A stretch of DNA of 64,000 nt from a virus (taxonomy: Duplodnaviria > Caudoviricetes), in IMG/VR virus record IMGVR_UViG_3300033066_002365, positions 2,543 through 66,542 of that record; one strand, given 5' to 3'. The notes below the pieces were generated by a model. That model had not been told where the DNA came from. It saw only the letters and a program-made list of their open reading frames with translations, and did not search any database. Shown here one piece after another: positions 8,948-57,595 of this stretch; within the stretch, counting starts at the first letter, position 1; each line of letters begins with the position of its first letter. Made by a program: the position numbers and the translations under genes.

Positions 8948-10375
8948 TTATAGAATTGAAGCGGCAAGTGAGGCAAGTTCTGATCTTTCACCTTTTATCA
9001 AAGTTACGTGACCAGAAAGTTTTGTGGTTTTAAATCTTTCAACTGCAACAGTTAATCCGTTTGAGGTGCTGTCTACAGAAAGATTGTCAATCTGTTCAAT
9101 GTCTCCGGTTAGAACAATTTTTGTTCCTTCACCAACTCTGGTAATAATTGTCTTAAGTTCTGCGGCGGACAAGTTTTGTGCTTCATCAATAATCATAAAA
9201 GCATTTGCAATGCTTCTGCCACGAATGTATGTTAAAGCTTCAACTTCAATTGTTCCACGTTCAAATAGAATGTCAAGAGTTGACTCGCCAGCTTTTGTTT
9301 TTTTACCGTCAGATAAAAGAAAACGAAGATTGTCTTTTATCGGAGCTAACCATGGTTCCATTTTTTCTGAAATAGTTCCTGGCAAAAAACCGATATCTGC
9401 ACCCATTGGTTGAACTGGTCTTGAAACCACCAAACTGTTATATGTTGCTTGTTTGGAGCCCAGTGAAGTCTGTTCCAATCCGGCAGCAATTGCAAGTAAA
9501 GTTTTACCAGTTCCGGCCATTCCAACCAAAGAAACAAGTTTTACTTTTGGATCCAACAAAAGATCTAGAGCAAATTTTTGTTCTTGGTTTTTGGCTGTCA
9601 GCTTTCCAACTCCAGCAGGTTTTCCAACAACTTTCAAAGGAAGTTCATCTGAGAGATATCTTAAGAGAATACTTTGACTTTCTCCACTTTTTACAGTTAA
9701 AAACATGTTTGGATACCAGTTGAACTCTTTTTGTTCATCTGTCAAATAAGTTAAAAACAAATCTCTCGTCATACCACCAGCATAAGCAAGAGCAAAGTTG
9801 AAGTTTGGAATTTCACAAAATGACTCAACTCCCGTGTAAATTGTTGAAGAATCTCTTGTGACTTGCATCTTTTTATATGTTTCACAACATATTCCAAGTG
9901 CTTTTGCCTTAACCATTAACAAAGTGTCTCTTGTTACAAGAATAACGTTGTCTTTGTGTGTGGTGTGTTTGTGCTGCACACCTCTACAAAATCTCAAAAT
10001 TTGATTGTCACCGGACTTAAGTTCCAACTCTGCTGAAATTGCAGGAACAACTGTTGATGTTGAAACATCTTCAATTGAATAAAGAAATAACTTTCCACCA
10101 CCAGGAGTGTCAATCCCAGATTTGGTAAGCTTTTCTTCTTGTGAAAGAAGGTCTCTTAATTTTCTTGCAACTTCTCTTGCTTCACGTCCAACGTCATCTT
10201 GCCGGTCCTTGTGTCTGTCAAGTTCTTCCAAAACAATTAATGGAATTAAGACATCGTGTTCTTCAAATGAAAACATTGCATTTGAATCACAAAGAAGGAC
10301 GTTCGTGTCAAGAACATAGAATTTTTTTTCTTTTTTTTGCTTCATGTCTATTTTACTAACTGTGAGGGTAGTCAA
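8948..10375 (-). CDS. phoH: PIN-domain PhoH family ATPase
   Basis: FYVLDTNVLL (PIN), ELDRHK, DNQIL, ILVTRD, GMAGTGKT (Walker A), IIDEAQN, KIVLTGD.EQID. Likely ATG start near 10345. Confidence 0.93.
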   Translation of the reverse strand: MTTLTVSKIDMKQKKEKKFYVLDTNVLLCDSNAMFSFEEHDVLIPLIVLEELDRHKDRQDDVGREAREVARKLRDLLSQEEKLTKSGIDTPGGGKLFLYSIEDVSTSTVVPAISAELELKSGDNQILRFCRGVQHKHTTHKDNVILVTRDTLLMVKAKALGICCETYKKMQVTRDSSTIYTGVESFCEIPNFNFALAYAGGMTRDLFLTYLTDEQKEFNWYPNMFLTVKSGESQSILLRYLSDELPLKVVGKPAGVGKLTAKNQEQKFALDLLLDPKVKLVSLVGMAGTGKTLLAIAAGLEQTSLGSKQATYNSLVVSRPVQPMGADIGFLPGTISEKMEPWLAPIKDNLRFLLSDGKKTKAGESTLDILFERGTIEVEALTYIRGRSIANAFMIIDEAQNLSAAELKTIITRVGEGTKIVLTGDIEQIDNLSVDSTSNGLTVAVERFKTTKLSGHVTLIKGERSELASLAASIL

Positions 10376-10466: not shown

Positions 10467-10733
10467 TCAAGCAGTTGGCGCCGTAGCTACTACAGCTTTT
10501 GCTGGACGAGTTGAAGCTCTTGTTGCTTTTGTTGCCTTGTCTGCCGCCTTTGAAGCAGCAACTAAAAGCTTGCAAAGTTTAACAACGTCACGAGCTCCGT
10601 GACGTACTCTCACACCTGCGGAGCAATTGTGCTTTTCAGATGTCTTTGAAACATCTTTTTCAAGTTCATCAACTGTTTTCTTTGTTTGTTCCCAAAGTTC
10701 TTTAACTGTTAGTGTTGATTGTTCTGTTGTCAT
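10467..10733 (-). CDS. Histone H1-like protein, Hc1 family
   Basis: VDELEKDVSKTSEKHNCSAGVRVRHGARDV matches the Hc1 pattern (D..K...GNK.AG.R.R); Ala/Lys/Thr-rich tail. Confidence 0.7.
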   Translation of the reverse strand: MTTEQSTLTVKELWEQTKKTVDELEKDVSKTSEKHNCSAGVRVRHGARDVVKLCKLLVAASKAADKATKATRASTRPAKAVVATAPTA

Positions 10734-10830: not shown

Positions 10831-11304
10831 TCAATGTCTGGTGATAGATTCCCAAACAATTTTACCAAAGCTTCCAACCAAAGAAGCTAACAATAACCAG
10901 AAAAGTTTATCAAAGTTTTTTCTAAACTTGAGCAAAGAATTTAAATCTTCAAGAGATTTACCGCCAGAAATTTCTTCTAGTTTTTTGATTGAATCTAAAT
11001 TTTTGGAAACAGTTTTAATATCTTCTTCTATTTTTTGAAGATTTTCATTTATTTGTTTGTTTTCTTCCAAATCTTCTTGTATGTGTTCTTTTAAATCTTT
11101 ATCAAACTGTTCTGTAGATAAAGAAATTCTATGCATTTTTGCATATGTTCCTGTTTCTGGATCATATAATCTATCAATTTTTTCTTTGATTTCTTTAACG
11201 TCAGCGGTTAATCTTGTAAAACCACCATTCATTGCTGGAGACTCTTTGAGCCTTTGATTAATATCTTCCAGTAGTTTTATTGAGTTGTCATTACTATTAG
11301 GCAT
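10831..11304 (-). CDS. Coiled-coil protein with a C-terminal transmembrane segment (possible holin-like membrane protein)
   Basis: Heptad-like charged body followed by LFWLLLASLVGSFGKIVW. Confidence 0.45.
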   Translation of the reverse strand: MPNSNDNSIKLLEDINQRLKESPAMNGGFTRLTADVKEIKEKIDRLYDPETGTYAKMHRISLSTEQFDKDLKEHIQEDLEENKQINENLQKIEEDIKTVSKNLDSIKKLEEISGGKSLEDLNSLLKFRKNFDKLFWLLLASLVGSFGKIVWESITRH

Positions 11305-11333: not shown

Positions 11334-12707
11334 GTGAAGAACTGCTCAGAAACAGAAATTTTTTCAAATGAAAGAATCTATAAAAATGATTTAAATGACC
11401 TGTTGTCACATATAAAAAAAGTTGTGGTAGATAACTTTTTTTTTAACAGTGCTTGGTCAAATCAATTTGGCTATTATGAAAAGAGTTCTTTTCATTTTCT
11501 ATTTGATTTTTTCAAACAAGAAATAGAAAATGAAAAGAACCAGAACAAAAAAACACTTCTGTTATTAATTTTTGAAATGATTAAAAAAGCTGATTTTGAA
11601 AGTTGTGGTTCAGGATTTTTATCTCTTGTTCTATTGTGTAATTTATTTGAAAATGAAAACAAACAAGAATTTTTGAAACTTCAAAACCAAATAATTTCTC
11701 TTTCAAAACCATTTTCTCTTATAGAACTTGAACTTTTGATTAATGAAATATGTGGAAATACGTCAAACAATCTTAAAGAAACCCTTCTTAAGACTTTTGA
11801 AGTTTCTGGGATTGATGGAATCATACAAGTTGAAAGTCACAATAGTTTGAGTGAGAAAAACTTTTACTCAATTGAAAAAATGCCAAGTGGTTGTAGATTC
11901 AAGTTGAATATACCGGAATTCTTTCTTTCTGGCAAAACAAAACTTTGGAAGAAAAACGAAGTCAAAATTTTACTTGTTGATGGTCGTCTTGAAAAGGTTT
12001 CAGAACTTGACAATCTTCTTTCTTTGTGCAATCAACAGAAAAGATCTATGGTGATAGTTTCAGCAGGATTTTCAGAAGAAATTATTGGAACTTTAAAAGT
12101 TAATTTTGATAGTGGAAAACTTGATGTAATTCCAATGACAATAAATCCAAATCTTGATGGTTTAAATGTTTTAAATGACATCGCGGCAGCATCAAACGGA
12201 GACGTGGTAAACTCTCTTAAAGGAGAAATGCTTGTTTTTAAAAAATTTGATCAAATACAAGAAGTTGATTTTGTTTCAGTTTCAAATGATGGTTGGTTGG
12301 TAATATCAGACAAAAAAGCAAAAGAATCAATTAGATTAAAGATAAATGAACTTACAGAAAAAAGATCTAAATCAACTGAAGTACAAGATTTGACCAATCT
12401 TTATAACAAAAGAATACAATCACTCATTAGCAATTTAATCATAATTAAATTTCCGTCAAATTTATCAAAACAACAACTTCTTTCAGAGAAAGTTAAAACT
12501 GATTTGGTTTTAAGAAGTTTGAAAAATTTTACTAGATATGGTTTTTTAAAACAGAGCGAATTTTTAACTCTTTTTGGAATAAACACAGCAGAGAAAAATA
12601 AAATTGTTTCTACTTTCTCTGCTGTTATCTCAGTTAAAAATGTTTTGAGTTTAATTGATCAGTTGAAAAGTGTTGGTGGGATGGTTCTGGTTTCTGAAGA
12701 AACTTAA
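11334..12707 (+). CDS. Divergent GroEL/Cpn60 paralog lacking the ATP-binding motifs
   Basis: Colinear with the GroEL at 28499-30178: LSKP, SGIDGIIQVE, KILLVDG, SMVIVS, LNDIAAASNGDV, KRIQSL...IIIK. AGDGTTT is replaced by SCGSGFL. Confidence 0.8.
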   Translation: MKNCSETEIFSNERIYKNDLNDLLSHIKKVVVDNFFFNSAWSNQFGYYEKSSFHFLFDFFKQEIENEKNQNKKTLLLLIFEMIKKADFESCGSGFLSLVLLCNLFENENKQEFLKLQNQIISLSKPFSLIELELLINEICGNTSNNLKETLLKTFEVSGIDGIIQVESHNSLSEKNFYSIEKMPSGCRFKLNIPEFFLSGKTKLWKKNEVKILLVDGRLEKVSELDNLLSLCNQQKRSMVIVSAGFSEEIIGTLKVNFDSGKLDVIPMTINPNLDGLNVLNDIAAASNGDVVNSLKGEMLVFKKFDQIQEVDFVSVSNDGWLVISDKKAKESIRLKINELTEKRSKSTEVQDLTNLYNKRIQSLISNLIIIKFPSNLSKQQLLSEKVKTDLVLRSLKNFTRYGFLKQSEFLTLFGINTAEKNKIVSTFSAVISVKNVLSLIDQLKSVGGMVLVSEET

Positions 12708-14368
12708 CCGTGACTTCCCATTAATTGTTTGAAGGCTTCTTCTGCACTAAGCTCTTGTGGGCTTGATGGTGTACTGGCGGCTGCTGCTGATGGTGTCTGT
12801 GTTTCTGCTGGAGTTGCTGCTGGCGCAACGGCTGCTGGTTCATCTGTTGGTGGTGTTTGGGCCTTTGCTGGTCTGCCTCTTTTTTTGCTAACTGCTGGTG
12901 TTTGAGATTCTGGTGCAGCAGGTGATTCTGTTGTTGGAGGAGTTGTTGGTTGTGTTGTTGGAGGGGTGGTGATGGTTTGAGATTCTGATGGAGCAGTTGA
13001 AGAACCATCCATTTTTTCTGCCCATTTTTGCAACACATTCCAAATATTTCCACCTTTTCCTGACATTCTAACAAATTTGCCAAGCATGTCATCTGGAATT
13101 GTTGTTCCATCGGGCAATTTTATTTCACTTGCAGCCATTAAAGGATTGTCTGGATATTTTGTCTTTAGTTCTGCTACTTGTTTTTGAGTAGCTCCAGGAG
13201 TTGTATTTGCTGGTTGTCCATTCTCAGAATTGCCCAACAATCCATTGTCCTTTAAAGCTTCTGCACTTTGTTTTTCAACTTGCGCAGGAGGTGGTAAGCC
13301 AGCTCCTTCTTTTGACAAAGATTGTAGTTGTTGAAATGTGAATGTGGCCAAATCTCTTGCAAATGAATCAACATTTATAACTGAAGAAATATTTGGTTTT
13401 GTGCCACCTGTCAAATATCTCATTATATTTGACCAGTGAGTAGGTTGTAATCTAGCAGCAAAAAGTTTTTCAACTTTAATTGAATCAACGTTTCCAAGAA
13501 CAGCGTTTATTGGTTGATCTGGTCTTTGTTTTGCATTTTCAAGTTCTGCCATGTCTATAATGACTGGAAGATCTTGAACAAAAAACTCAAACATTGCATC
13601 GTATAACACGTTTGCTCTTGTTATTGTCTTTTGAGCTTCCATGTTGCCGCCAGACAAAATTCCTTTGTTGGAAACCACATTAGTAAGATTTGCTCTTAGT
13701 TCTTTGATGGCCTGTGAAAGAGTACCGAGATTTTTGTACTTGTTTGCTACACCTTGTAGTTTTTCAATTGCTGCTTGAATTTCTCTTAAAGTGTTTGCAT
13801 CAACTTTTAATTCATTTAAAAATTTATAGCTTTCCGACAAAGAAACTGGATGTTTTACATTCTTTCCAAGCAAGAAAATCTTTGCTGCAACTTCTGGTGT
13901 CATCAATTTTTCAACTTCTTCTTGAAGTTCAGTGCTCCAGATCAACGGTTCTACAACTTCAAACAAAAAAGAATTATCATTTTTTGACTTGTTTTCTTTT
14001 ACAAGAAAAACATCTCTATTCATAACTTTGCGAGCTTGTCTTACAAGCATTGAATAGATGCCAATTCCGTTCATCAACTTTTCTTTAAGAATCAAAGCAT
14101 CTTGCTGGTCGGAAGTTTTAATAGACTCTGAAATGATTTCATTCCAGGCAGTTTCAGCTATTTTGGAAAATTTGTAAAACTTGTTTTCCTTTACAACTTT
14201 ATCAAGATTTTCTAATGATTTTATCAGTTGTTCTTTTTTGAAATCGTCAGCTTCAATCTCTTCAAAAGCGATAAATCTTTTGTTAAAATTTGCTTCTGTT
14301 AAAGCTTGTTGGTTGTTTTTGTGTTCGTTTAACTCTTGTTGCTTCTGCCACAGTTGTTTTAGCGTCAT
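12704..14368 (-). CDS. Hypothetical helical protein with Pro/Thr/Ala-rich disordered C-terminus (possible head-internal protein)
   Basis: 554-aa ORF; L-x-E motifs (QELNE, SLSES, FLNE); TTPPTTQPTTPPTT tail. Confidence 0.6.
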   Translation of the reverse strand: MTLKQLWQKQQELNEHKNNQQALTEANFNKRFIAFEEIEADDFKKEQLIKSLENLDKVVKENKFYKFSKIAETAWNEIISESIKTSDQQDALILKEKLMNGIGIYSMLVRQARKVMNRDVFLVKENKSKNDNSFLFEVVEPLIWSTELQEEVEKLMTPEVAAKIFLLGKNVKHPVSLSESYKFLNELKVDANTLREIQAAIEKLQGVANKYKNLGTLSQAIKELRANLTNVVSNKGILSGGNMEAQKTITRANVLYDAMFEFFVQDLPVIIDMAELENAKQRPDQPINAVLGNVDSIKVEKLFAARLQPTHWSNIMRYLTGGTKPNISSVINVDSFARDLATFTFQQLQSLSKEGAGLPPPAQVEKQSAEALKDNGLLGNSENGQPANTTPGATQKQVAELKTKYPDNPLMAASEIKLPDGTTIPDDMLGKFVRMSGKGGNIWNVLQKWAEKMDGSSTAPSESQTITTPPTTQPTTPPTTESPAAPESQTPAVSKKRGRPAKAQTPPTDEPAAVAPAATPAETQTPSAAAASTPSSPQELSAEEAFKQLMGSHG

Positions 14369-28253: not shown

Positions 28254-28502
28254 TTAAACCTCTTCTTCTTTTGTTTCAACAGACAGTTTTCCTTCTTGTA
28301 ACACAAAAGATACCTTTAAACTCTTGTCTCCAACTGTTTTAATTTTATTCTTTTCAAGAGAAAGATCGGAAACAACAGAAATTTCTTCTTCCGCACATAA
28401 GTTTATCTTTTTTACTTGTTCTTTTAAAAAATCTTCAAATTTGTAACCTGTGAAGTGTCTTAGATCACTTTCAAGTTGAGGGTGCATTTTCAATATCATC
28501 AT
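28254..28502 (-). CDS. Hypothetical protein
   Basis: 82-aa ORF overlapping the groEL stop; no GroES motif. Confidence 0.55.
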   Translation of the reverse strand: MMILKMHPQLESDLRHFTGYKFEDFLKEQVKKINLCAEEEISVVSDLSLEKNKIKTVGDKSLKVSFVLQEGKLSVETKEEEV

Positions 28503-30178
28503 GATGTCTTATTTTCTCCTATGTCACTTACCACAATTGCATTACAAGACAACATCAAACTAACCACACTTGTTGCGTGTTCAATGGCAAATCTTGGAAC
28601 TTTAACAGGATCTATAATCCCGGCTTCAACTAAATTTTTATATTCATTTTTATGCGCATCATAACCAATTTTTTGATCGTTGAAAGAAAGAAGTTTGTCA
28701 AGAATAACTTCCCAGCTTTTGCCAGAATTTCTAACAATTGTTTTAATTGGTTCTTCGCAAGCATCCAGAACAATTTTAATTCCTGTCATTTCATCTTCAT
28801 CAAATTGTGATTCAAACTCTGTTTTAAGTTTTGCTCTTATATTTTTTGAAGCATAATATAGACCAGTACCACCACCAGAGATAACCCCTTCTTGAACCGC
28901 TGCCAAAGTTGCGTTCAGGGCATCTTCTACTCTATCCTTTTTTTCAAATATTTCAACTTCAGTTGCTCCACCAACTTTAATCACCGCAACACCGCCGCCA
29001 AGTTTTGCAAGTCTTTTCTTGAGATTGTGTCTGCGAAGGTCATCAAGTAAATTATCTTCTTTTAAAGCTGTTCTCATTTCAACTATTCTGTCATTTATTT
29101 TTGACTTTTGTTCTTCTGAGATTCCATCTGTTACAATGGTCATGGAATTTCTTGAAATGATTACTTTGGAACAAGTGCCAAGTTGTTCAAGATTAACATT
29201 TTCCAAATTTTGCCCGGAACTTGCATCAAAAACTGTTGAATTTGTCACTGTTGCCAAATCTTGTAAAATATTTGTTCTGTTTTCTCCGTAACTTGGAGCT
29301 TTTACAGCAACAACATTTAAAACTCCATTCATCTTGTTTACAATTAATGTATGTAAAGCTTCGCCTTCAATTTCATCTGCTACTATAACAAGACTTTTAT
29401 TGTTATTTGCAGTTTCTTCTAGAATTGGTAAAATTTCTGACAGTGTTGAAATTTTTTTGTTTGTTATTAAAAACAAAGGATTTTGTAGTTCTGCTGTATT
29501 TTTTTCATTGTTTGTAACGAAATATGGAGAACAGAAACCTGATTCAATTTGAATTCCTTCAACAATTTCCAAAGAAGTATTAAAACTCTTACCAACTTCA
29601 ATTGTAATAATTCCGTCCTGGCCAACTTTAGAAATTGCATCCGAAAGCAGAGAACCAATTTGCCTGTCTCCGTTTGCAGAAATTGTTCCAATTGAAATAA
29701 TGTCTTCAAGGTCCGTAACTGGTTTTGAAAACTTTTTCAATTCCTCCACAACAGCCTTGCAGCCAATTTCCATTCCATGTTTGATTTTAACTGGTTGATG
29801 ACCAGTTGTAAGCATTTTAAAACCTTTTTCCAAAAGTGCATAAGCAAGCACTGTGGCGGTTGTGGTTCCGTCACCGGCTTGTTCATTTGTGACAGCGGCA
29901 ACTTCTTTAATAAGTTCAACTCCAATGGACTGAACCGGATGGGAAGAATTAATTGCTTTTGCAACGGTAACACCATCTTTTGTAATAAATGGAGGATTTT
30001 TTGAACCTTTTTTACTTATAATTACTGTTTGTCCTGCTGGACCCATAGTAACTTTTACCGCTTCTGCCAAGATAGAAGCGCCACGTAAAATTTCTTCGTG
30101 AGCCTCCATTCCAAACATAACCCCGGTATTTTCAAAGGAAGAATTTAAATCTGCTGCCTTGTTATTTTTTTCGTTCAT
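28499..30178 (-). CDS. groEL: Chaperonin GroEL (Cpn60)
   Basis: TMGPAG, ITKDGVTVA, AGDGTTTATV, KAPSYG, KLGGGVAVIKVGGATE, RVEDALNAT, SGGG, IDPVKV. No GGM tail. Confidence 0.97.
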   Translation of the reverse strand: MNEKNNKAADLNSSFENTGVMFGMEAHEEILRGASILAEAVKVTMGPAGQTVIISKKGSKNPPFITKDGVTVAKAINSSHPVQSIGVELIKEVAAVTNEQAGDGTTTATVLAYALLEKGFKMLTTGHQPVKIKHGMEIGCKAVVEELKKFSKPVTDLEDIISIGTISANGDRQIGSLLSDAISKVGQDGIITIEVGKSFNTSLEIVEGIQIESGFCSPYFVTNNEKNTAELQNPLFLITNKKISTLSEILPILEETANNNKSLVIVADEIEGEALHTLIVNKMNGVLNVVAVKAPSYGENRTNILQDLATVTNSTVFDASSGQNLENVNLEQLGTCSKVIISRNSMTIVTDGISEEQKSKINDRIVEMRTALKEDNLLDDLRRHNLKKRLAKLGGGVAVIKVGGATEVEIFEKKDRVEDALNATLAAVQEGVISGGGTGLYYASKNIRAKLKTEFESQFDEDEMTGIKIVLDACEEPIKTIVRNSGKSWEVILDKLLSFNDQKIGYDAHKNEYKNLVEAGIIDPVKVPRFAIEHATSVVSLMLSCNAIVVSDIGENKTS

Positions 30179-40105: not shown

Positions 40106-42052
40106 ATGGCAAAACAGACATTCACATTTCAACAACTGGCAGAGGGCGCACGTCGTGTCGGGCTCGGTGCCGAGTTAACAAAGAAAACCGCACGCTGGGC
40201 AGAAACCGGCCTACTTGAAGGATTGAGTGGACAGAACCGTGAAAAAATGGTTCGTTTGCTTGAAAACCAAGCACAGGAAGTTTTCTTTGGCAAAACAGCA
40301 TCTCAAGTGCTTACCGAAGCAAACGCTATCTCAACAGGTGGTGCCGGTCTTGCTTCAAGCGGACAAATTGCAGGTTTTACTAACGTAGCCTTCCCAATTG
40401 TCAGAAAAGTATTCGCAGGATTGATTGCAAACGAAGTTGTATCCGTACAACCAATGAGTTTGCCATCAGGACTTTTGTTCTTCCTGGACTACACATACGG
40501 TTCAAACGTAGGTGGAGACGCAGGACTTTCACTGTCAAATTCTTCAGCAAACGAAACATATACAAGAGGACAGTCAATTTATAACTTGCCAACAGGCGCA
40601 GCAATCCGTTCGGGTTCAACTGCAACTGGTGGACAATATGGTTTGATTGGAACTGGTTATTCAAGAGTTCAGAAGCAAGCTTTGAACGTTTCTTGTGGTA
40701 CTGACTCTGTTGGTTACTGGTTGTCAGGTTCTACCTGGACCACAACAGGAACACCAACTGTAAAGACAACAGCAGACTTTGTTGGTTTTAACGCAAGATT
40801 TGTGGGCTATGATCCACAGGTTGAAGTAGACGTTGCCAACAACTTGCTTGACTATACCTTCTTGCACATTTCAGCTTCAGAACTTGCATCAAAGATTGCT
40901 GGTATTGACCTTGGATCCTTGGATCAAATTGCAATTACTGGTCTTGGTGGAACTCCTGGTGGCGCAACTGCTTGGGGAGCAAACTACCAAGGTGGTACAG
41001 GCGTTCTAAACTTGAGAACAAAAACAAAGAGAGGTAACTTTGATCCAATCAACGGAACCTTTACTGTTGACGCTCTTGGTGGATCGCACGTACAGTTTGT
41101 TGTAGCTGTGTCAAACACAGGTGCAGCACCAACTCTAGGTGGAACAGCAACAACTTTCGTAACAGCATCTTCAGTAATTTCAGATGCGCTTTCAGTGAAC
41201 GGTGACGGTAGCACACTTGTGATCCCATCATTTGAAACTGACTTTGCACTTGATGCATCACCAAAGATTCCAGAAGTTGACATCAAGATTGAATCAGTGG
41301 CCGTGGTAGCAACTTCTCGTAAGTTGAGAGCACGTTGGTCTCCTGAAATGGCACAAGACATCACAGCATTCTACTCAATTGACATTGAAGCAGAATTGAC
41401 AAACCTCTTGTCGCAAATGATTACTCTGGACATTGACAGAGAAATCTTGATGGATCTTCTAACACAAGCTTCAGCAGCAAACCTTTACTGGTCACGCGCA
41501 GTTGGTAAGTTTGTTAACAAGTACACTGGAACAGAAGGAACCCGCGCTGGTACACTTTCTCCAGGACCATCGTTCACTGGCGACATTCAACAGTGGTATC
41601 AAGGTCTGCTTGAGACAGTAACAGATGCAGCAAACACAATTCACAAGAAGACACTTCGCGGAAGTGGTAACTTCATTGTGACTTCACCAGAAGTTTGCAC
41701 AATCCTTGAACACGTAAGTTCATATCGTACAATGTACAAGATGGACGGAGACGGTCAAGTTAAAGAAGGAATGTCAATCGGAGCCGAAGCTGCCGGTACT
41801 TTGAACAACAGATATGTTGTGTACAAGGATCCATACTTCCCATCAAACAAGATCTTGATCGGTCTTAAGGGAAATACCTTCCTTGAATCAGGATATATCT
41901 ACGCTCCATACGTACCACTTATCTTGACTCCAGTGATCTACGCACAAGATGACTTTACTCCACGTAAGGGAATCATGACACGTTACGGTAAGAAGATGGT
42001 TCGCGCTGACTTCTACGCAACAGTTACAGTGCTAGACATGAGCATCATATAG
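40106..42052 (+). CDS. Major capsid protein (T4 gp23-like) with large insertion
   Basis: LLENQ, VLTEAN, FPIVRKVF..LIANEVVSVQPM..PSGLLFFLDY, SRKLRARWS.E.AQD, IDREIL, YAPYVPL, TPRKGIMTRYG. Confidence 0.96.
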   Translation: MAKQTFTFQQLAEGARRVGLGAELTKKTARWAETGLLEGLSGQNREKMVRLLENQAQEVFFGKTASQVLTEANAISTGGAGLASSGQIAGFTNVAFPIVRKVFAGLIANEVVSVQPMSLPSGLLFFLDYTYGSNVGGDAGLSLSNSSANETYTRGQSIYNLPTGAAIRSGSTATGGQYGLIGTGYSRVQKQALNVSCGTDSVGYWLSGSTWTTTGTPTVKTTADFVGFNARFVGYDPQVEVDVANNLLDYTFLHISASELASKIAGIDLGSLDQIAITGLGGTPGGATAWGANYQGGTGVLNLRTKTKRGNFDPINGTFTVDALGGSHVQFVVAVSNTGAAPTLGGTATTFVTASSVISDALSVNGDGSTLVIPSFETDFALDASPKIPEVDIKIESVAVVATSRKLRARWSPEMAQDITAFYSIDIEAELTNLLSQMITLDIDREILMDLLTQASAANLYWSRAVGKFVNKYTGTEGTRAGTLSPGPSFTGDIQQWYQGLLETVTDAANTIHKKTLRGSGNFIVTSPEVCTILEHVSSYRTMYKMDGDGQVKEGMSIGAEAAGTLNNRYVVYKDPYFPSNKILIGLKGNTFLESGYIYAPYVPLILTPVIYAQDDFTPRKGIMTRYGKKMVRADFYATVTVLDMSII

Positions 42053-51489: not shown

Positions 51490-54400
51490 TTAACCTACTT
51501 GAGCTCCTACGTTGTTGTTCAAAACGAAGTCAAGAGATACGAATTCTAGAGTCTTGGTTGGTGCAACCCAAATTTTGCCTCTAATTGTCTTGTTTTGGAT
51601 ATCTGCTTCTGTGGTTGTCGTTGTGTCAATATCAACCTGAAAGTTATCCACGCCTTTTTGAGTCTTGATTTCACGAAGAATTGGAGTTACCAAATCCTTG
51701 AATTGTTGAAGAGTTGCTTCTCTGTTTTGTTGAAACAAAACTCTGAGCGCAACTTTTCTAACTCTTCTTCTCAATTCAATCAAGAGACGACGAACGTTAA
51801 TTCTATCAAATGCTGATGATTTTGCAAGAAGTGTTTTCTGTCCCCAAACCACAGGACCACGACCAGGGAAAGTTGTTAGAGAATTGATTGACACACTGTA
51901 CAACGAGTCAAGATTTTCTTGATTCAACTGAACAGCCACACTATCTGTAGTTCCAAGAGCACCTCTTGAGAAACCTGCTGGAGCGTACCATGGGTGAGCC
52001 AGGGCATCGTTCTTTCCAAATGCACCAAGAACAGCAACAGATGGAGGAACTTGAACCAAGCTTCTGTTGACAGTATCTCTCAAAATAACGTCTGGGAAGT
52101 AAGCTGCCGCATAACTTGAGTTAAGACCACGATTTCTAAATCCCGAAACTGTGTTTTTGACGCTAATTTGTTGGGAGTCTGTTGTAACTTTTGAGTTGAT
52201 GTAATCTCTCTGTTCAATGTCCATGACAAACAAAGCATCAAAACGATTTTCTACCATGTTTGTAGCCAAGTCTGTAAGATATGGAACACGAATATCAGGC
52301 ATTGCCAGAAGTTGAATTGAGGTTTCTGAAATGTCGCTTAGAATGTCAAGAGCTTTTGTGTAACTCTTGACAGTTGGTCCGTTTGTTAATCCTCTGTTTG
52401 CGTATTCCATCTCTTGAGTGACGGCAGCATTGGAAAAAGTTGTGCAATCTTCATCAAACACACGAACTCCGTCAAAACCACCTTCAGCAAACAAGGTAAA
52501 CTTTGCCACGTTTCTTACTGATGGTTCTGTGAGATCTGAAACTCTGAGTGCTCTTGTTAGATCAGATGTGTTTGTTGGAATTGAACCAGTTCTCACATAT
52601 GTCCAATTTTCAAGTTGAGTTACATCTGGAAGAGAGGTGTTTGAGTTGTAGATAACCTGTACTTTTTCAAGAGAGAATGCGTTGTTGCAGAACAAAGATG
52701 CATCCAGCACACCATTTTCAGGAGTTGAAGCAGTTCCTTCATTGTCTCTCACAACAACATTCATCCAAGTTGTTTGAAAGTTTGGATAATACTTGTTGAA
52801 TGATTCAATTGAATCATTGAAGATCAAAGAGTTGTTGGGTGTTCTTGGATCAACAACGGTTTCAAACTGTACACCCCAGTACAAATTTCTATCTGCTCTA
52901 ACCGAACTTCGTCCACCTTTGGTTAAGTTTTTTCTAAATGGAACTGGTGGCTGAATTATCTTCTGTGTTGGGTTTGAACCTTGAAGATAGTTTGTGTCAA
53001 CCAGGGCAGGAAACACAGCAGTACCAGAAGTAACCAAGTGTTGATGACCACCAAAAGCAACTGGAAGTGCAGTTGGATTCATCTCTTCGTTTTTTACCAA
53101 GTCAGAAATTTCAACACGAATAAAGTTTGAATTGTTGGAATATTCTCCAGTTGTTACAAGACGTTGCTTACCTTCAGAAGTGTCAAAGTTAAAATAAGTG
53201 TGATTGTCACCAATTATTTTTCCAATATAGTTTGATGAATTTGGATCAAGATTTAATCCTCTCCACTGTTCTAGAATTACTTTTGCATTGTCATTGTCAT
53301 AGAAATCTCTAACAACAACATCAAATGTTCCAAATTGATAAGTGTCGGTTGTTGATGGGGCAATGTTTTCAATTGAAAATTTGGCTTTTGTATTTGAGGC
53401 TGAACCGTCATCCAACATCCAAATTTTAAATAGATTTTGCTGAATTCCACCAAAATTTTGTGATTTTATCCATGGAGTGCTTGCTGCTCTAAATCTGTCT
53501 TGAAAATTTTCAAAATTTGGTACAGTTGTTGATCCACTGTTTCTTGAAACTGAACTTGTAAGCAAAAAAGCGATGTTTTCAAGACCATTTCCTAGTTGCG
53601 CTGCTCCTGAAACGGCGTTTACAAAACTAGATCCAGTAACATAAGCTTGCTTTGGTTGAATGTCAAAACTTGAATAAAGAACGTAACCAGCTTCTTCCAT
53701 TTTCAGTGGATCACGGTTGAAAACGTTTCCAAAATAATTTGCAGCATTCAAGTCAAATGAAGCTGTTAAACATCTTGGATAGGTTGCAGTTTGTTTGTGT
53801 CCGTTAAGCAACATAACAAACTCCTGTTTCCCAGAAGAAAGATTAACGCTCCCTGAATGAAAACCAAAGAGAGCCCCAGATTGAGCGACGTTGTCTGAAG
53901 TTAAACCGCTATCAACATTTGATGCTGAAAGAGTTAAAATAACACCAGAAGCAGCAAACAGAATTCCTCTGGTGATAACCGCCTGTGATCCAAGACCAGC
54001 TTCAGAAAAAAATGTTGAACTATAATCTGAATTTTCTGTCATTGCAGCAGCCAGGAAGAATGTTCTTCCTGGACTTCCAAACAAAGAAGGAATTCCAGAA
54101 GTTTTAGCAAAAGTGTTGTGTCCAAGAGCGCCAGACAAAGTTACTTGTGGTTGTTGGTCTCCAACAAGAAATCCTGCGCCGTCAACTTGTCCAGTGTTTG
54201 TTCCGCTTTGATTTCTTCTTGTTCCTTGACCTGCTCCCAAAACTCTTAATTGCAAAAATGATTGTTGTGTAGACAACCATTCTTTTGCGGCAAGAGCTCC
54301 AAATTTTGCTCCTTCAACTGGATTTCCAAAGACTGTGGTGTAGTCAGGGAAAGTTGGAACGGTAGTTGGTACAAATGCTGGACCTTTTTGTGTTGGAGAA

Positions 54401-54495
54401 ATTACAGCAGCAGGAACACCAACAGGTGAGTTACTTGTTGGCCCTGTGTTGTCAATTTCTCTTGATCTTACGTTTGGGCTTGTTGTTTCAGACAT
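51490..54495 (-). CDS. Contractile tail sheath protein 1 (T4 gp18-like, 1001 aa)
   Basis: SPNVRSREID, GPAFVPT, HPWYAPAG.SRG, FDRINVRRLL, PTKTLEFVSLDF. Confidence 0.93.
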   Translation of the reverse strand: MSETTSPNVRSREIDNTGPTSNSPVGVPAAVISPTQKGPAFVPTTVPTFPDYTTVFGNPVEGAKFGALAAKEWLSTQQSFLQLRVLGAGQGTRRNQSGTNTGQVDGAGFLVGDQQPQVTLSGALGHNTFAKTSGIPSLFGSPGRTFFLAAAMTENSDYSSTFFSEAGLGSQAVITRGILFAASGVILTLSASNVDSGLTSDNVAQSGALFGFHSGSVNLSSGKQEFVMLLNGHKQTATYPRCLTASFDLNAANYFGNVFNRDPLKMEEAGYVLYSSFDIQPKQAYVTGSSFVNAVSGAAQLGNGLENIAFLLTSSVSRNSGSTTVPNFENFQDRFRAASTPWIKSQNFGGIQQNLFKIWMLDDGSASNTKAKFSIENIAPSTTDTYQFGTFDVVVRDFYDNDNAKVILEQWRGLNLDPNSSNYIGKIIGDNHTYFNFDTSEGKQRLVTTGEYSNNSNFIRVEISDLVKNEEMNPTALPVAFGGHQHLVTSGTAVFPALVDTNYLQGSNPTQKIIQPPVPFRKNLTKGGRSSVRADRNLYWGVQFETVVDPRTPNNSLIFNDSIESFNKYYPNFQTTWMNVVVRDNEGTASTPENGVLDASLFCNNAFSLEKVQVIYNSNTSLPDVTQLENWTYVRTGSIPTNTSDLTRALRVSDLTEPSVRNVAKFTLFAEGGFDGVRVFDEDCTTFSNAAVTQEMEYANRGLTNGPTVKSYTKALDILSDISETSIQLLAMPDIRVPYLTDLATNMVENRFDALFVMDIEQRDYINSKVTTDSQQISVKNTVSGFRNRGLNSSYAAAYFPDVILRDTVNRSLVQVPPSVAVLGAFGKNDALAHPWYAPAGFSRGALGTTDSVAVQLNQENLDSLYSVSINSLTTFPGRGPVVWGQKTLLAKSSAFDRINVRRLLIELRRRVRKVALRVLFQQNREATLQQFKDLVTPILREIKTQKGVDNFQVDIDTTTTTEADIQNKTIRGKIWVAPTKTLEFVSLDFVLNNNVGAQVG

Positions 54496-54526
54496 CTTTT
54501 TATTCTACTCTGGTTAATAGATAGTT

Positions 54527-57500
54527 TTAACTTCCGAAGCTCACACCAGAAGGTGTAACAAAGAAGTCAATAAAAATGAATTCAACAGAACGAGTTGGTT
54601 TAAACTCAATTCTTCCGTTGATTCTGTTTGCGTTCACGTCGTTTTCGGTATTGTTGGTTCCGTCACAAACAACATTGAATCTTTCAATTCCTTGTTTTAC
54701 TTGAACTGAAGCCATCAAAGATTTGATGTTAGAATTCAAGAGATCGTACAAGTCTTGAGTAATGTTTTCAAAGACAATGTTTTGGGCAGCGGCTACAACC
54801 ATTGATTTAACTTCAAGAACCATTCTTTTCACGTTGATAGTTTCAAGAGCAGATCTACCAAGTTTTGCAGTTCTTTGCGAGAAAATGACATAACCTTCTC
54901 CTGGCAACTTGATGATTGGATTGATTCTTGCTTCATTCAACAAGTTTTGATCTGGTTGGTTTAATCTTACCTGAGTAAGTTTTACACTGTCCAAACTTGC
55001 TCTGTTCAAACCTGCTGGTGCCCACCACGGATACGAAACTTTGTCTGTATAACTCAAAGCCGTTAAAGCCGGAACAGAAGCAGGAAGTGTAACTCTTTTT
55101 CTATTTGAGTCTTCCATGACAACGTTTGGAAAATAAAAGCCAGTTGCGTCGTTGTCAATGTTTCTTGCAGTGAAAGTAAATGCTGTATTTTCTGCATCAA
55201 TTGTTGTTGTTTCAGAATCAAAAATTCTTGTTGCGTTGTCATCATATGCTGGCGCCTCTGAAACAAAGAAGGCCAGTTGGTTTTTATTTTTCACAAGATC
55301 TGCAACGTAGTCAACAACAAGTGGTTCACGAATTCCTGGGAAGGCGAAAACATTTGCATTGGTGATTCTTGGATCTGTTGCAATGTCTGCTGCTGTCTTG
55401 AAAGACTGAACCGAAGCATTTGCGTTTGAAATACCAGAATAGTTGATAGTAGCTCCAGGAGATGTATATGAATTTGAAGCACCGCCATTTCTGGTTGCGC
55501 TTGACTCCGTACTTGTGGCTACGTCGTTTAGTTGGTTTGTTTCAAAGATGTTTGTACCATCCCAGCCACCATACATTAGTGTTGTAAATTTTGTAAAATC
55601 TGCAAATTTGTTAAACAGAGAAATTACATCTGTATCGCTGTAGTTCTTAAAATTAACAACCGAAGCCAGAGTAACTCTTGTTGATGAACCATCCAACACA
55701 GTATAATTTTGTGATTCTGGTGTTCCATTTCTAATGTATGCCGCGCCCTTCATGACAGTTTCAGAAGAAACATTCAACAGATCTCCAACGGATGAATAAG
55801 CTGGATCAAAAGAAATTTTTGCAAGTGTGAATTTGTTGTTGTTGAACTGGTCACAGAAAGAACCAGAAACAAGAACATCCAGTTTTTCAATTCCCTGAAA
55901 TTTACTATAAGCTTCAACAATTGGATTTGGAAGTGAAACGATGTTTGGATTTGTTACATTTGTGTTTCTTTCAAATTTAACTCCCCAAAACAAACGATGA
56001 TCAACAATTTCACTTGAACCAGGATCTCCAGAGAAAGTTGGAGAATCCGAAACTGCGCCTCTTGTAATTTTAAAACGAAAAGGTAGAGGAGGAACAATGC
56101 TGCTTGAAACAACAGATGCCGAACCAGAACCGGCCAATCTTGCTGACAATGCAACATTTCCCGTGTCTGTCAAAGAGGAATTTGTGTTGATGACAGGAAC
56201 GCCTCTAAAGCCGAAAGGAAGAGACTGCGGTGGAACATTTTTGCGTTTAACGGCATCAGAGACAGAAATACGAATAAATTTTGACTTGTTTCCAAACTGT
56301 CCAACTTGAATCAATCTTTTGTCGTCTTCATTTTCAACATCAAAATTATAGAATACTTTCTTATCTCCTATTACTTTTGCGATATAGTTTTCTGATTCTG
56401 GATTGATTGAAAGTCCATTGAACTGTTCAAGAATTTTTTGATCAAAATCTGTGTCGTTGATATCACGAACAATCAAAGAGAAGGTTCCAAAAGGATTTTT
56501 TGGATCTGAACTTAGTTTCAGGGAACCGATTGAAATTTTAAACTTACCAGAACCAGCAAATCCATCGTCAAGTGCCTCAACAGAAAACAAATCATGTTCA
56601 GTTGAACCAAATGGTTGTGAAATGAATGAAGGAGTTTTGGCTGTTGTAAATCTTGTGTCAAAACGACCAAAAGCTTCTCTCATTCCAATAATAAGCCCAG
56701 AATTGGCGCTTTGTAAATCTGATCCAGACAAAATCATTACAGAACCATTGTTTCCTGACCCTGATGCAACAGATGCCAACTCAGCATCTACGGCAAAATC
56801 AAGATACAACAAGTGTTTTTCAGCTTCAAATCTTGTTGGATCAGTATTCAGAATTTTTCCAATGTAAGAGTTATCACTTGGATTAAAAGAAGCAGTAAAA
56901 ATTTTAATGCCTGCAAATCCATCAGTTTTTGCAAAAGTTGAACCAGCAGAAGTTGACAGAACAAGCTTGAAGTTTCTGTATGTTGGATTTGCAGGAGTGT
57001 TGTCAATTGTTGCGGCGTCATCAATTGATGGAGCAAAAGTTTCGTTTGTGTCCATCACCATAAAACGACTGTCGTAAGCCGTAAACAAAGCTGCTCTAAC
57101 AAGTCTCGCCGCATCTGAGGGTAGAGCAAAACTGCTGTTGTCTGAAAACATTGGAAACCCAACAGCTTCAGAGCTAGAAACAATGTGTTTTGCGGCAAGA
57201 AATTGAACATACCCCTTGTGACGGTTATCTCCGTTGCCAACAACAGAGCCAATAACCTTCATGCCAGCATTTTTAACAATTCCCGCTGTTCTTGTTGCTT
57301 CAATTTCGGTAGAATTCTGAGAAGCGCCCGCACCGAGAACTCTTGTGAAAGTTACTGCACGGCCATTTTGCAAAACTTCTTTTGCGGCGAACAAAGATGG
57401 GTTTTTTTGATTTGCTTCTCCAAACAGTGCTACCAAGTCTGAGTAGGAACCGACTGTCATTGGTGTGAAAGCTCTGCCTTTTGTTGAAGAACCAACGATT

Positions 57501-57595
57501 GCATATGGCGTTCCGGTTGGAGCTACAACCTTTTGAGAAAGGTCAATTTCACGATCGTAGTATCCTGGTGACTGATTTATTGTTTGTTGTGACAT
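54527..57595 (-). CDS. Contractile tail sheath protein 2 (T4 gp18-like, 1022 aa)
   Basis: SPGYYDREID, GRAFTP, YPWWAPAG.NR, INVKRMV, PTRSVEFIFIDF. Confidence 0.93.
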   Translation of the reverse strand: MSQQTINQSPGYYDREIDLSQKVVAPTGTPYAIVGSSTKGRAFTPMTVGSYSDLVALFGEANQKNPSLFAAKEVLQNGRAVTFTRVLGAGASQNSTEIEATRTAGIVKNAGMKVIGSVVGNGDNRHKGYVQFLAAKHIVSSSEAVGFPMFSDNSSFALPSDAARLVRAALFTAYDSRFMVMDTNETFAPSIDDAATIDNTPANPTYRNFKLVLSTSAGSTFAKTDGFAGIKIFTASFNPSDNSYIGKILNTDPTRFEAEKHLLYLDFAVDAELASVASGSGNNGSVMILSGSDLQSANSGLIIGMREAFGRFDTRFTTAKTPSFISQPFGSTEHDLFSVEALDDGFAGSGKFKISIGSLKLSSDPKNPFGTFSLIVRDINDTDFDQKILEQFNGLSINPESENYIAKVIGDKKVFYNFDVENEDDKRLIQVGQFGNKSKFIRISVSDAVKRKNVPPQSLPFGFRGVPVINTNSSLTDTGNVALSARLAGSGSASVVSSSIVPPLPFRFKITRGAVSDSPTFSGDPGSSEIVDHRLFWGVKFERNTNVTNPNIVSLPNPIVEAYSKFQGIEKLDVLVSGSFCDQFNNNKFTLAKISFDPAYSSVGDLLNVSSETVMKGAAYIRNGTPESQNYTVLDGSSTRVTLASVVNFKNYSDTDVISLFNKFADFTKFTTLMYGGWDGTNIFETNQLNDVATSTESSATRNGGASNSYTSPGATINYSGISNANASVQSFKTAADIATDPRITNANVFAFPGIREPLVVDYVADLVKNKNQLAFFVSEAPAYDDNATRIFDSETTTIDAENTAFTFTARNIDNDATGFYFPNVVMEDSNRKRVTLPASVPALTALSYTDKVSYPWWAPAGLNRASLDSVKLTQVRLNQPDQNLLNEARINPIIKLPGEGYVIFSQRTAKLGRSALETINVKRMVLEVKSMVVAAAQNIVFENITQDLYDLLNSNIKSLMASVQVKQGIERFNVVCDGTNNTENDVNANRINGRIEFKPTRSVEFIFIDFFVTPSGVSFGS

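Follow-up and report, generated by a model that had tools for sequence, protein, structure and literature searches.

A GroEL relative without the ATP site is conserved alongside phage GroEL in a lineage of uncultured phages

Introduction

Extra GroELs beside a canonical copy are known from chlamydiae, in which GroEL2 and GroEL3 have divergent ATP-binding/hydrolysis and GroES-binding regions and only GroEL1 complements a GroEL defect (PMC1892554). These paralogues are the closest cellular analogues of the protein analyzed here, which is encoded at positions 11334-12707 (+) of a 64,000-nucleotide stretch of viral DNA (positions 2,543 to 66,542 of IMG/VR record IMGVR_UViG_3300033066_002365). We refer to this whole stretch as the window, and to the protein, a GroEL relative that has lost the ATP site, as pseudo-GroEL; the window also encodes a canonical GroEL. 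Whereas the chlamydial paralogues are full-length, cellular and retain recognizable parts of the nucleotide site, pseudo-GroEL belongs to a family that is truncated, was found only in viruses in the searches described below, and forms a clade of its own.

Chaperonins of large phages include Pseudomonas phage EL gp146 and the chaperonin of Bacillus phage AR9, which are the subject of two reports (10.1101/2020.02.24.962803, PMC9598537). Both are, like pseudo-GroEL, encoded by large phages, but they are active full-length ATPases. A further comparison is offered by the vertebrate proteins BBS12, BBS10 and MKKS/BBS6, diverged proteins of the chaperonin fold; in these, the core structure is kept, a standard ring is judged unlikely, and the ATP-hydrolysis motif of BBS12 is no longer recognizable (PMC2846930). 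The BBS proteins differ from the phage family in being eukaryotic and of group II, in carrying insertions rather than a deletion, and in keeping the Gly-Pro ATP-binding dipeptide that the phage family has deleted. The BBS chaperonin-like proteins are reported (Seo et al., 2010) to work with CCT as assembly factors for a single complex, the BBSome, and an assembly factor of this type is the functional analogy that we favor for pseudo-GroEL.

Two further systems frame the comparison. The hetero-oligomeric eukaryotic CCT/TRiC and chloroplast Cpn60 alpha/beta also comprise several paralogous subunits per genome, with a possible division of substrate recognition among them; there, no subunit has lost its nucleotide site or any part of the equatorial domain, and for the phage pair a shared ring is hypothetical. 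Minichaperones (PDB 1kid, 1fya and 3vz6) demonstrate that an isolated apical domain is stable and can bind independently of nucleotide. They are, however, engineered and carry the native hydrophobic groove, whereas in the natural phage protein the groove is partly charged and the intermediate domain and a reduced equatorial domain are present as well. The original prediction, made from the letters of the window, had proposed a catalytically dead GroEL paralogue paired with an intact GroEL and knew of no described system of this kind; likewise, we found no account of a truncated phage GroEL relative without an ATP site in the literature, in which subscription journals were covered incompletely.

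Results and discussion

Pseudo-GroEL is a very diverged GroEL homologue

The two chaperonin genes of the window, both ordinary genes for soluble proteins, are as follows.

11334-12707 (+): gene for the ATP-site-less GroEL-like protein (pseudo-GroEL), 457 aa, GTG start; the subject of the homology, fold, family and selection analyses
28499-30178 (-): canonical phage GroEL, 559 aa; PF00118 at 223 bits, phrog_5725 at E 3e-143; complete ATP site and hydrophobic apical groove

As had been predicted, the pseudo-GroEL gene is a single unbroken frame of 457 codons, with a TAA in frame immediately upstream of its GTG start; a database protein 99% identical to the product has the same length. The relationship to GroEL had been proposed from a manual alignment, and the motif pairs listed there (e.g. 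KFSKPV/SLSKPF and VGQDGIITIE/SGIDGIIQVE) all fall in the same columns of a MAFFT alignment with E. coli GroEL. BLASTP against the canonical GroEL of the window gave E 2e-8 with 24% identity across 259 residues, and hhalign to the same protein yielded a probability of 99.2%. A phmmer search of all PDB sequences returned GroEL/Hsp60 chains only, headed by 5da8 (E 1.2e-12), and a profile built from the 106-member family matched PDB GroELs at E 1.3e-42, covering GroEL residues 4-412.

General annotation resources do not place the protein. Neither PF00118 nor any other Pfam model matched at E<=1, and PHROGs gave no chaperonin match and contains no model for it. The GroEL models of NCBIfam scored 31-55 bits against cut-offs of 352-582 (at best 55 against 352), so that the curated thresholds were missed, and the GroEL3_Chlamy model of the same collection matched weakly (E 3e-9).

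The predicted structure is in line with the sequence comparisons. An AlphaFold2 model computed on the family alignment (mean predicted local distance difference test score 93.6; predicted template modeling score 0.85) retrieved GroEL chains in Foldseek at E 1e-23. Structural alignment with VIA (Z 22-25 over 428-437 residues) placed model residues 6-457 on GroEL residues 2-526, across all three domains. The apical domain of the model superposed on crystal structures of the GroEL apical domain at 1.8-2.0 Å over 177-180 residues (Z 24-25), and the minichaperones aligned with model residues 156-368 at 1.8-3.4 Å. Together, these data identify the product of 11334-12707 as a true but very diverged GroEL homologue with the three-domain subunit fold.

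The nucleotide site and the ring-ring interface are lost, and the apical domain is the best-conserved part

Residues were mapped in a MAFFT alignment of E. coli groL (standard numbering), 106 family members and 7 canonical GroELs of carrier phages, which divides the protein into five segments.

11334-11699 (+): residues 1-122, N-terminal equatorial segment; N-terminal strand and stem-loop hairpin kept, T30-G35 loop deleted
11700-11885 (+): residues 123-184, first intermediate segment (GroEL 134-190), placed by the residue map and alignment
11886-12437 (+): residues 185-368, apical domain, the best-conserved part of the family
12438-12536 (+): residues 369-401, second intermediate segment (helix M); catalytic D398 replaced by L391
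12537-12704 (+): residues 402-457, remnant of the C-terminal equatorial half; GGG lost, last helix and C-terminal strand kept

The nucleotide-site residues T30-G35, K51/D52, G86-T91, D398, G414-G416, N479-A481 and D495 are lost or deleted in the window protein as well as across the 106 family members, and all of them are retained in the seven co-resident phage GroELs. Within the family, the T30-G35 loop is deleted, D87 is replaced by G, T89-T91 by G/S, an aromatic and an aliphatic residue, and the catalytic D398 by I, V, L or N, and G414-G416 are gone; at the GDGTTT site the window protein reads C-G-S-G-F-L and the family consensus S-A-G-S-G. The predicted loss of TxGPxG, TKDGVT, GDGTTT, the catalytic Asp and GGG thus extends from the window protein to its whole family, and the accompanying claim of an intact GroEL at 28499-30178 stands as well, with every nucleotide-site residue present.

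A canonical GroEL/Cpn60 subunit shares the three-domain fold with pseudo-GroEL, the homology spanning GroEL 4-412 and the C-terminal helix and strand, but has in addition the ATP site, approximately 60-75 more equatorial residues including inter-ring contacts, and uncharged residues at L234 and V263. The missing equatorial residues correspond to a family-wide deletion of GroEL ~428-495, some 60-75 residues of the C-terminal equatorial half, which takes out the inter-ring contacts E434, R452 and E461-V464 together with the nucleotide contacts N479-D495. Across the equatorial inter-ring contact set that was checked (K105/A109, E434, R452 and E461-V464) the domain is incomplete, with E434 and R452 absent in 103-104 of the 106 members. 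Judged by these residues, the protein cannot bind or hydrolyze ATP in the GroEL manner, and the ring-ring interface is absent.

What has been kept is more than the apical and intermediate domains of the original prediction. That description was correct but incomplete, as a reduced equatorial domain with its terminal strands and stem-loop also remains: DSSP assigned strands at model residues 6-12, 39-41 and 47-49 in the N-terminal segment, and a helix (427-445) followed by a strand (449-455) at the C-terminus. In the first intermediate segment, P137 is retained as P126, and I150, S151 and N153 are not conserved. The hinge glycine G192 (G186 in the window protein) is invariant in all 106 members and G410 (G403) is present in 103; hinge G375 is not retained.

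Conservation is concentrated in the apical domain. Mean pairwise identity within the family is 0.37 for the apical domain against 0.17-0.18 for the equatorial segments, whereas canonical GroELs are nearly even across domains. Helices H and I (signature VSE(I/L)D...L and GFSEE..(A/G)TL..N) and segment 283-310 match GroEL itself in conservation, despite the far greater overall divergence of the family. Within the apical groove, eight positions were compared (Y199, Y203, F204, L234, L237, L259, V263 and V264). L234 is replaced by D, H or E in 100 of the 106 members, Y199 by P in 65 and V263 by K in 52, the window protein having D for L234 and K for V263; Y203, F204, L237 and L259 remain hydrophobic (F, L, L and I/V/L). 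Polar or charged replacements at groove positions of GroEL are said to abolish binding of polypeptide and of GroES (Fenton et al., 1994). The ATP-independent holdase that had been suggested is, in its generic form, made less probable by the charged residues at L234 and V263.

The C-terminal equatorial deletion, the charged groove and the size of the family go beyond the original prediction, as does a deletion particular to the window copy. Like family member P0020, this copy is without ~16-18 residues (GroEL 108-123, the end of helix D; at residues ~108-112) present in most members, and its terminal branch is unusually long (2.0 changes per column).

The family is large, viral and under purifying selection

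A search of 90%-identity clusters found 20 relatives of 434-481 aa. Exhaustive searching of 50%-identity representatives gave 972 at E<=1e-3, 617 at E<=1e-10 and 80 at E<=1e-30; the best 150 of the 617 are 167-509 aa long, mostly 400-500. Since canonical GroELs score much worse, the 617 representatives are essentially all of the short family. From IMG/VR, 59 loci were retrieved, and the frame check covered 61 loci, all of which have an open pseudo-GroEL frame. For the 17 pairs with unsaturated synonymous divergence (members 73-92% identical), the Nei-Gojobori ratio of nonsynonymous to synonymous substitution rates (dN/dS) was 0.05-0.16. Purifying selection maintains the pseudo-GroEL gene.

These results bear directly on whether the gene is a decaying, functionless relic of a duplicated GroEL, as the loss of all catalytic residues, the large deletion and the lack of a Pfam match might suggest. 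The open frames at every locus, the low dN/dS, hundreds of diverged clusters of constant length and a confident, compact fold refute this reading, whose probability we put close to nil; the original prediction had argued likewise that the gene is not a decaying pseudogene. The most distant copy (record G016, loci L059/L060, 114709-115959, -) matches the profile in two pieces, with a TAG and a TAA within the match. A split gene, a frameshift or recoding could account for this, and the copy is a possible exception to the intact frames; identical 414-aa frames were seen in two samples.

Neighbors in the ESM Atlas are clusters labeled 'hypothetical protein' that are 94-100% viral. No family member was found among 50,697 GenBank phage records by tblastn with the window protein and member P0031, which returned only weak matches to ordinary GroELs. 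Likewise, none emerged from a pattern scan covering 185,579 prokaryotic species genomes, or from BFVD, where the only matches were full-length viral GroELs, that of AR9 among them, and thermosome-like proteins. Within the searches made, the family thus occurs only in viruses. In the tree, it forms one clade (support 100) on a branch of ~3.6 changes per column, with no firm joining point among phage and bacterial GroELs, so that an origin as a duplicate of the phage GroEL is neither shown nor rejected.

The IMG/VR viral contig that contains the window is 66.5 kb long with a CheckV completeness of 26%, which puts the full genome at roughly 250 kb. The large terminase of the window is nearest to those of Flavobacterium phage vB_FspM_immuto, Microcystis phage Mel-JY01 and T4-like cyanophages (33-39% identity). 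On the terminase relatives and the estimated genome size, we class the source as an uncultured, distantly T4-like jumbo phage. The gene at 11334-12707 encodes a 'pseudo-chaperonin', a GroEL descendant kept by selection in a large lineage of such phages.

GroEL ranks among the most thoroughly studied molecular machines, and ring movements driven by ATP are considered essential to how it works. Here, a viral family of at least ~600 clusters has discarded both the ATP site and the ring-ring interface, while strong selection has preserved the subunit fold and, most of all, the apical binding face. The family is in this respect a natural experiment on what a chaperonin subunit can do without nucleotide. 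With no Pfam or PHROG model available and the ESM Atlas label uninformative, a family profile would annotate hundreds of phage genes.

Pseudo-GroEL is co-inherited with a canonical phage GroEL

Pseudo-GroEL occurs exactly once in each of the carrier records. A canonical GroEL, again one copy per record, is present in 8 of the 22 carriers, and in 5 of the 7 with a completeness of 45% or more, among them the top three (81, 70 and 66%). This bears on the co-occurrence across related phages that the original prediction had wanted checked. The remaining carriers without GroEL are fragments of 5-51% completeness, in which absence says little. When records were instead picked through a distant GroEL (43% identical to that of the window), a short form of 404-405 aa turned up in two of the three large records, namely those of 60% and 84% completeness.

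The two genes also diverge in step. Across 21 genome pairs that hold both, the nonsynonymous divergence of pseudo-GroEL was 1.6-2.4 times that of GroEL (~1.9), and the branching orders of the two proteins agree in the tree. The parallel divergence and matching topologies indicate that both genes have been inherited together since before these phages split, the short gene evolving about twice as fast. The family is, therefore, co-inherited with the canonical phage GroEL. The recurrent pairing and the divergence in step uphold part of the proposed two-component phage chaperonin system, and we regard a two-component reading as plausible; that the pair forms a single system goes further than these data, the genes lying 16-98 kb apart.

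A specialized binding module may act beside the phage GroEL

We propose that pseudo-GroEL acts as a binding module that needs no nucleotide. Its active surface would be the strongly conserved apical domain, where the groove between helices H and I appears to have been remodeled from generically hydrophobic to partly charged. From the charged residues at two classic hydrophobic groove positions, we infer that its ligands may be limited to one protein or a handful of proteins, for example a structural protein of the phage or another chaperone component, and that it would not bind unfolded proteins indiscriminately. As for the reduced equatorial domain, this would serve as a scaffold. Because it retains the elements that knit GroEL subunits into a ring, namely both terminal strands and the stem-loop hairpin, a single ring or another oligomer is plausible. 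The protein would work in the folding and assembly pathway of the phage alongside its GroEL, to which it need not be bound.

A specialized holdase or assembly adaptor beside the phage GroEL is, in our tentative assessment, the most likely role. Should the two proteins cooperate, the arrangements of BBS proteins with CCT or of Cpn60 alpha with beta would have a counterpart in viruses, and this cooperation could explain how the very large structural proteins of jumbo phages are folded.

Several observations weigh against this assignment. The partner, oligomeric state and chaperone activity are predictions from sequence. Pseudo-GroEL and GroEL are never adjacent, being 16 kb apart in the window and 23-98 kb apart in relatives; nor does pseudo-GroEL adjoin structural genes. 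Two carrier records of 45-51% completeness have no GroEL. That the genes are co-inherited within a single phage lineage is no proof of interaction, and shared descent would by itself make both diverge in parallel. Conservation of the N-terminal strand, stem-loop and C-terminal strand is no better than that of the rest of the equatorial domain. Lastly, the neighboring genes described below form a conserved backbone block of the lineage and give no hint of protein folding.

A more intimate arrangement, in which pseudo-GroEL and the phage GroEL are physically one machine, with pseudo-GroEL either providing inactive specificity subunits within an ATPase ring or forming an oversized single-ring lid, appears doubtful to us. 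If real, it would be the first known virus-encoded two-paralogue chaperonin, serving capsid and sheath proteins too large for the GroEL/GroES cage.

In the first form of this arrangement, pseudo-GroEL would be an inactive subunit of a mixed ring, in the manner of CCT or chloroplast Cpn60 alpha/beta; neighboring ATPase subunits would move its domains, and it would contribute a substrate face of its own. The strict one-plus-one gene content and co-inheritance at a constant rate ratio are consistent with such a ring, as is the retention of the terminal strands and stem-loop, from which GroEL builds its inter-subunit sheet. The hinge glycines G192 and G410 are kept (in 106 and 103 of the 106 members) although no nucleotide can drive the hinge in pseudo-GroEL itself, and the model is nearer to raised, GroES-bound GroEL subunits (Foldseek TMq 0.64-0.65) than to those of apo rings (0.48-0.52), a fit that may, however, be no more than a habit of the predictor. 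On the other hand, the two genes lie far apart in different gene blocks, the equatorial domain is not only 60-75 residues smaller but also the least conserved part of the protein, hinge G375 is not kept, and the interface strands lack special conservation. We consider a mixed ring unlikely.

The second form would be a GroEL-derived lid: a single ring of pseudo-GroEL would dock on the phage GroEL ring with the apical faces of the two rings in contact, replacing or supplementing GroES and enlarging the chamber for oversized capsid and sheath proteins. With the inter-ring contact helices deleted, a single ring is what would be expected if any ring forms, and the apical face is the conserved part. 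The window, moreover, encodes very large structural proteins, including sheath-size open reading frames (ORFs) of 1001 and 1022 aa; the two sheath-size proteins are encoded at 51490-57595 and the capsid protein at 40106-42052, and there is a portal candidate. Of the 10 carrier records searched for Cpn10/GroES, one alone contained it, and the other nine fragments, the contig of the window included, gave no Cpn10. The record that has one, IMGVR_UViG_3300026078_000017 (G007), is 81% complete and encodes it at 143360-143599 (-), 8 kb from the GroEL of that phage, which argues against the lid. The phage GroEL also retains all GroES-binding residues, so that GroES of host or phage can serve, and a lid of this kind is a matter of structural reasoning alone, with no precedent. 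We regard it as very improbable.

One of the canonical GroELs has an unusual architecture. In a related carrier (G003, IMGVR_UViG_3300020577_008610; L070:187-2973, +), the GroEL gene is an open frame of 928 aa. Close to the GDGTTT phosphate loop, an insert of ~340 residues with LAGLIDADG/Hom_end homing-endonuclease domains separates Pfam Cpn60 position 62 from position 63 and is most likely an intein in the phage GroEL.

The gene neighborhood is conserved

The genes around pseudo-GroEL in the window are listed below, and their synteny was counted over 62 loci.

8948-10375 (-): PIN-PhoH fusion protein, 475 aa; the most constant neighbor of pseudo-GroEL, at 58 of 62 loci
10467-10733 (-): Hc1-like (chlamydial histone H1-like) protein, 88 aa; PF07432 at E 4e-7; near pseudo-GroEL at 35 of 62 loci
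10831-11304 (-): coiled-coil protein with a C-terminal membrane helix, 157 aa; weak match to a PHROG 'hemolysin' (XhlA-like), E 2e-4
12704-14368 (-): 554-aa protein; convergent with pseudo-GroEL, with a 4-nt overlap at the stop codon

The coiled-coil membrane protein gene is divergent from pseudo-GroEL across a gap of 29 bp and adjoins it at 41 loci. Other recurrent neighbors are an RNaseH-like protein (39 loci) and a CxxCxxCC protein (29).

This setting is one argument for a new role outside protein folding, in which the GroEL fold would serve as a scaffold, for example as a poisoning or decoy subunit directed against host GroEL, or in some function of a nucleic-acid-related gene block. Synteny with the PIN-PhoH, RNaseH-like and Hc1-like genes, the charged residues at generic substrate-binding positions and the very long branch between the family and all GroELs count in favor of such a role. 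However, the syntenic block is simply conserved throughout the phage lineage, half of the groove is still hydrophobic, the association with a phage GroEL recurs, and the isoelectric points (pI) of family members range from 4.9 to 9.4 (median 6.0). A non-folding role is, in our view, distinctly unlikely. A nucleic-acid-binding surface, an idea drawn from the neighborhood, was rejected given the variable pI and the lack of a consistent basic surface.

The Hc1-like protein is an unusual DNA-compacting protein for a phage. The 554-aa product of 12704-14368 had no family match; the C-terminal third of its sequence is of low complexity, rich in Pro, Thr, Ala and Gln, and includes an AT-hook-like motif. 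The gene at this position varies among relatives, encoding 455 aa at one locus (L002) and 198 aa at another (L003).

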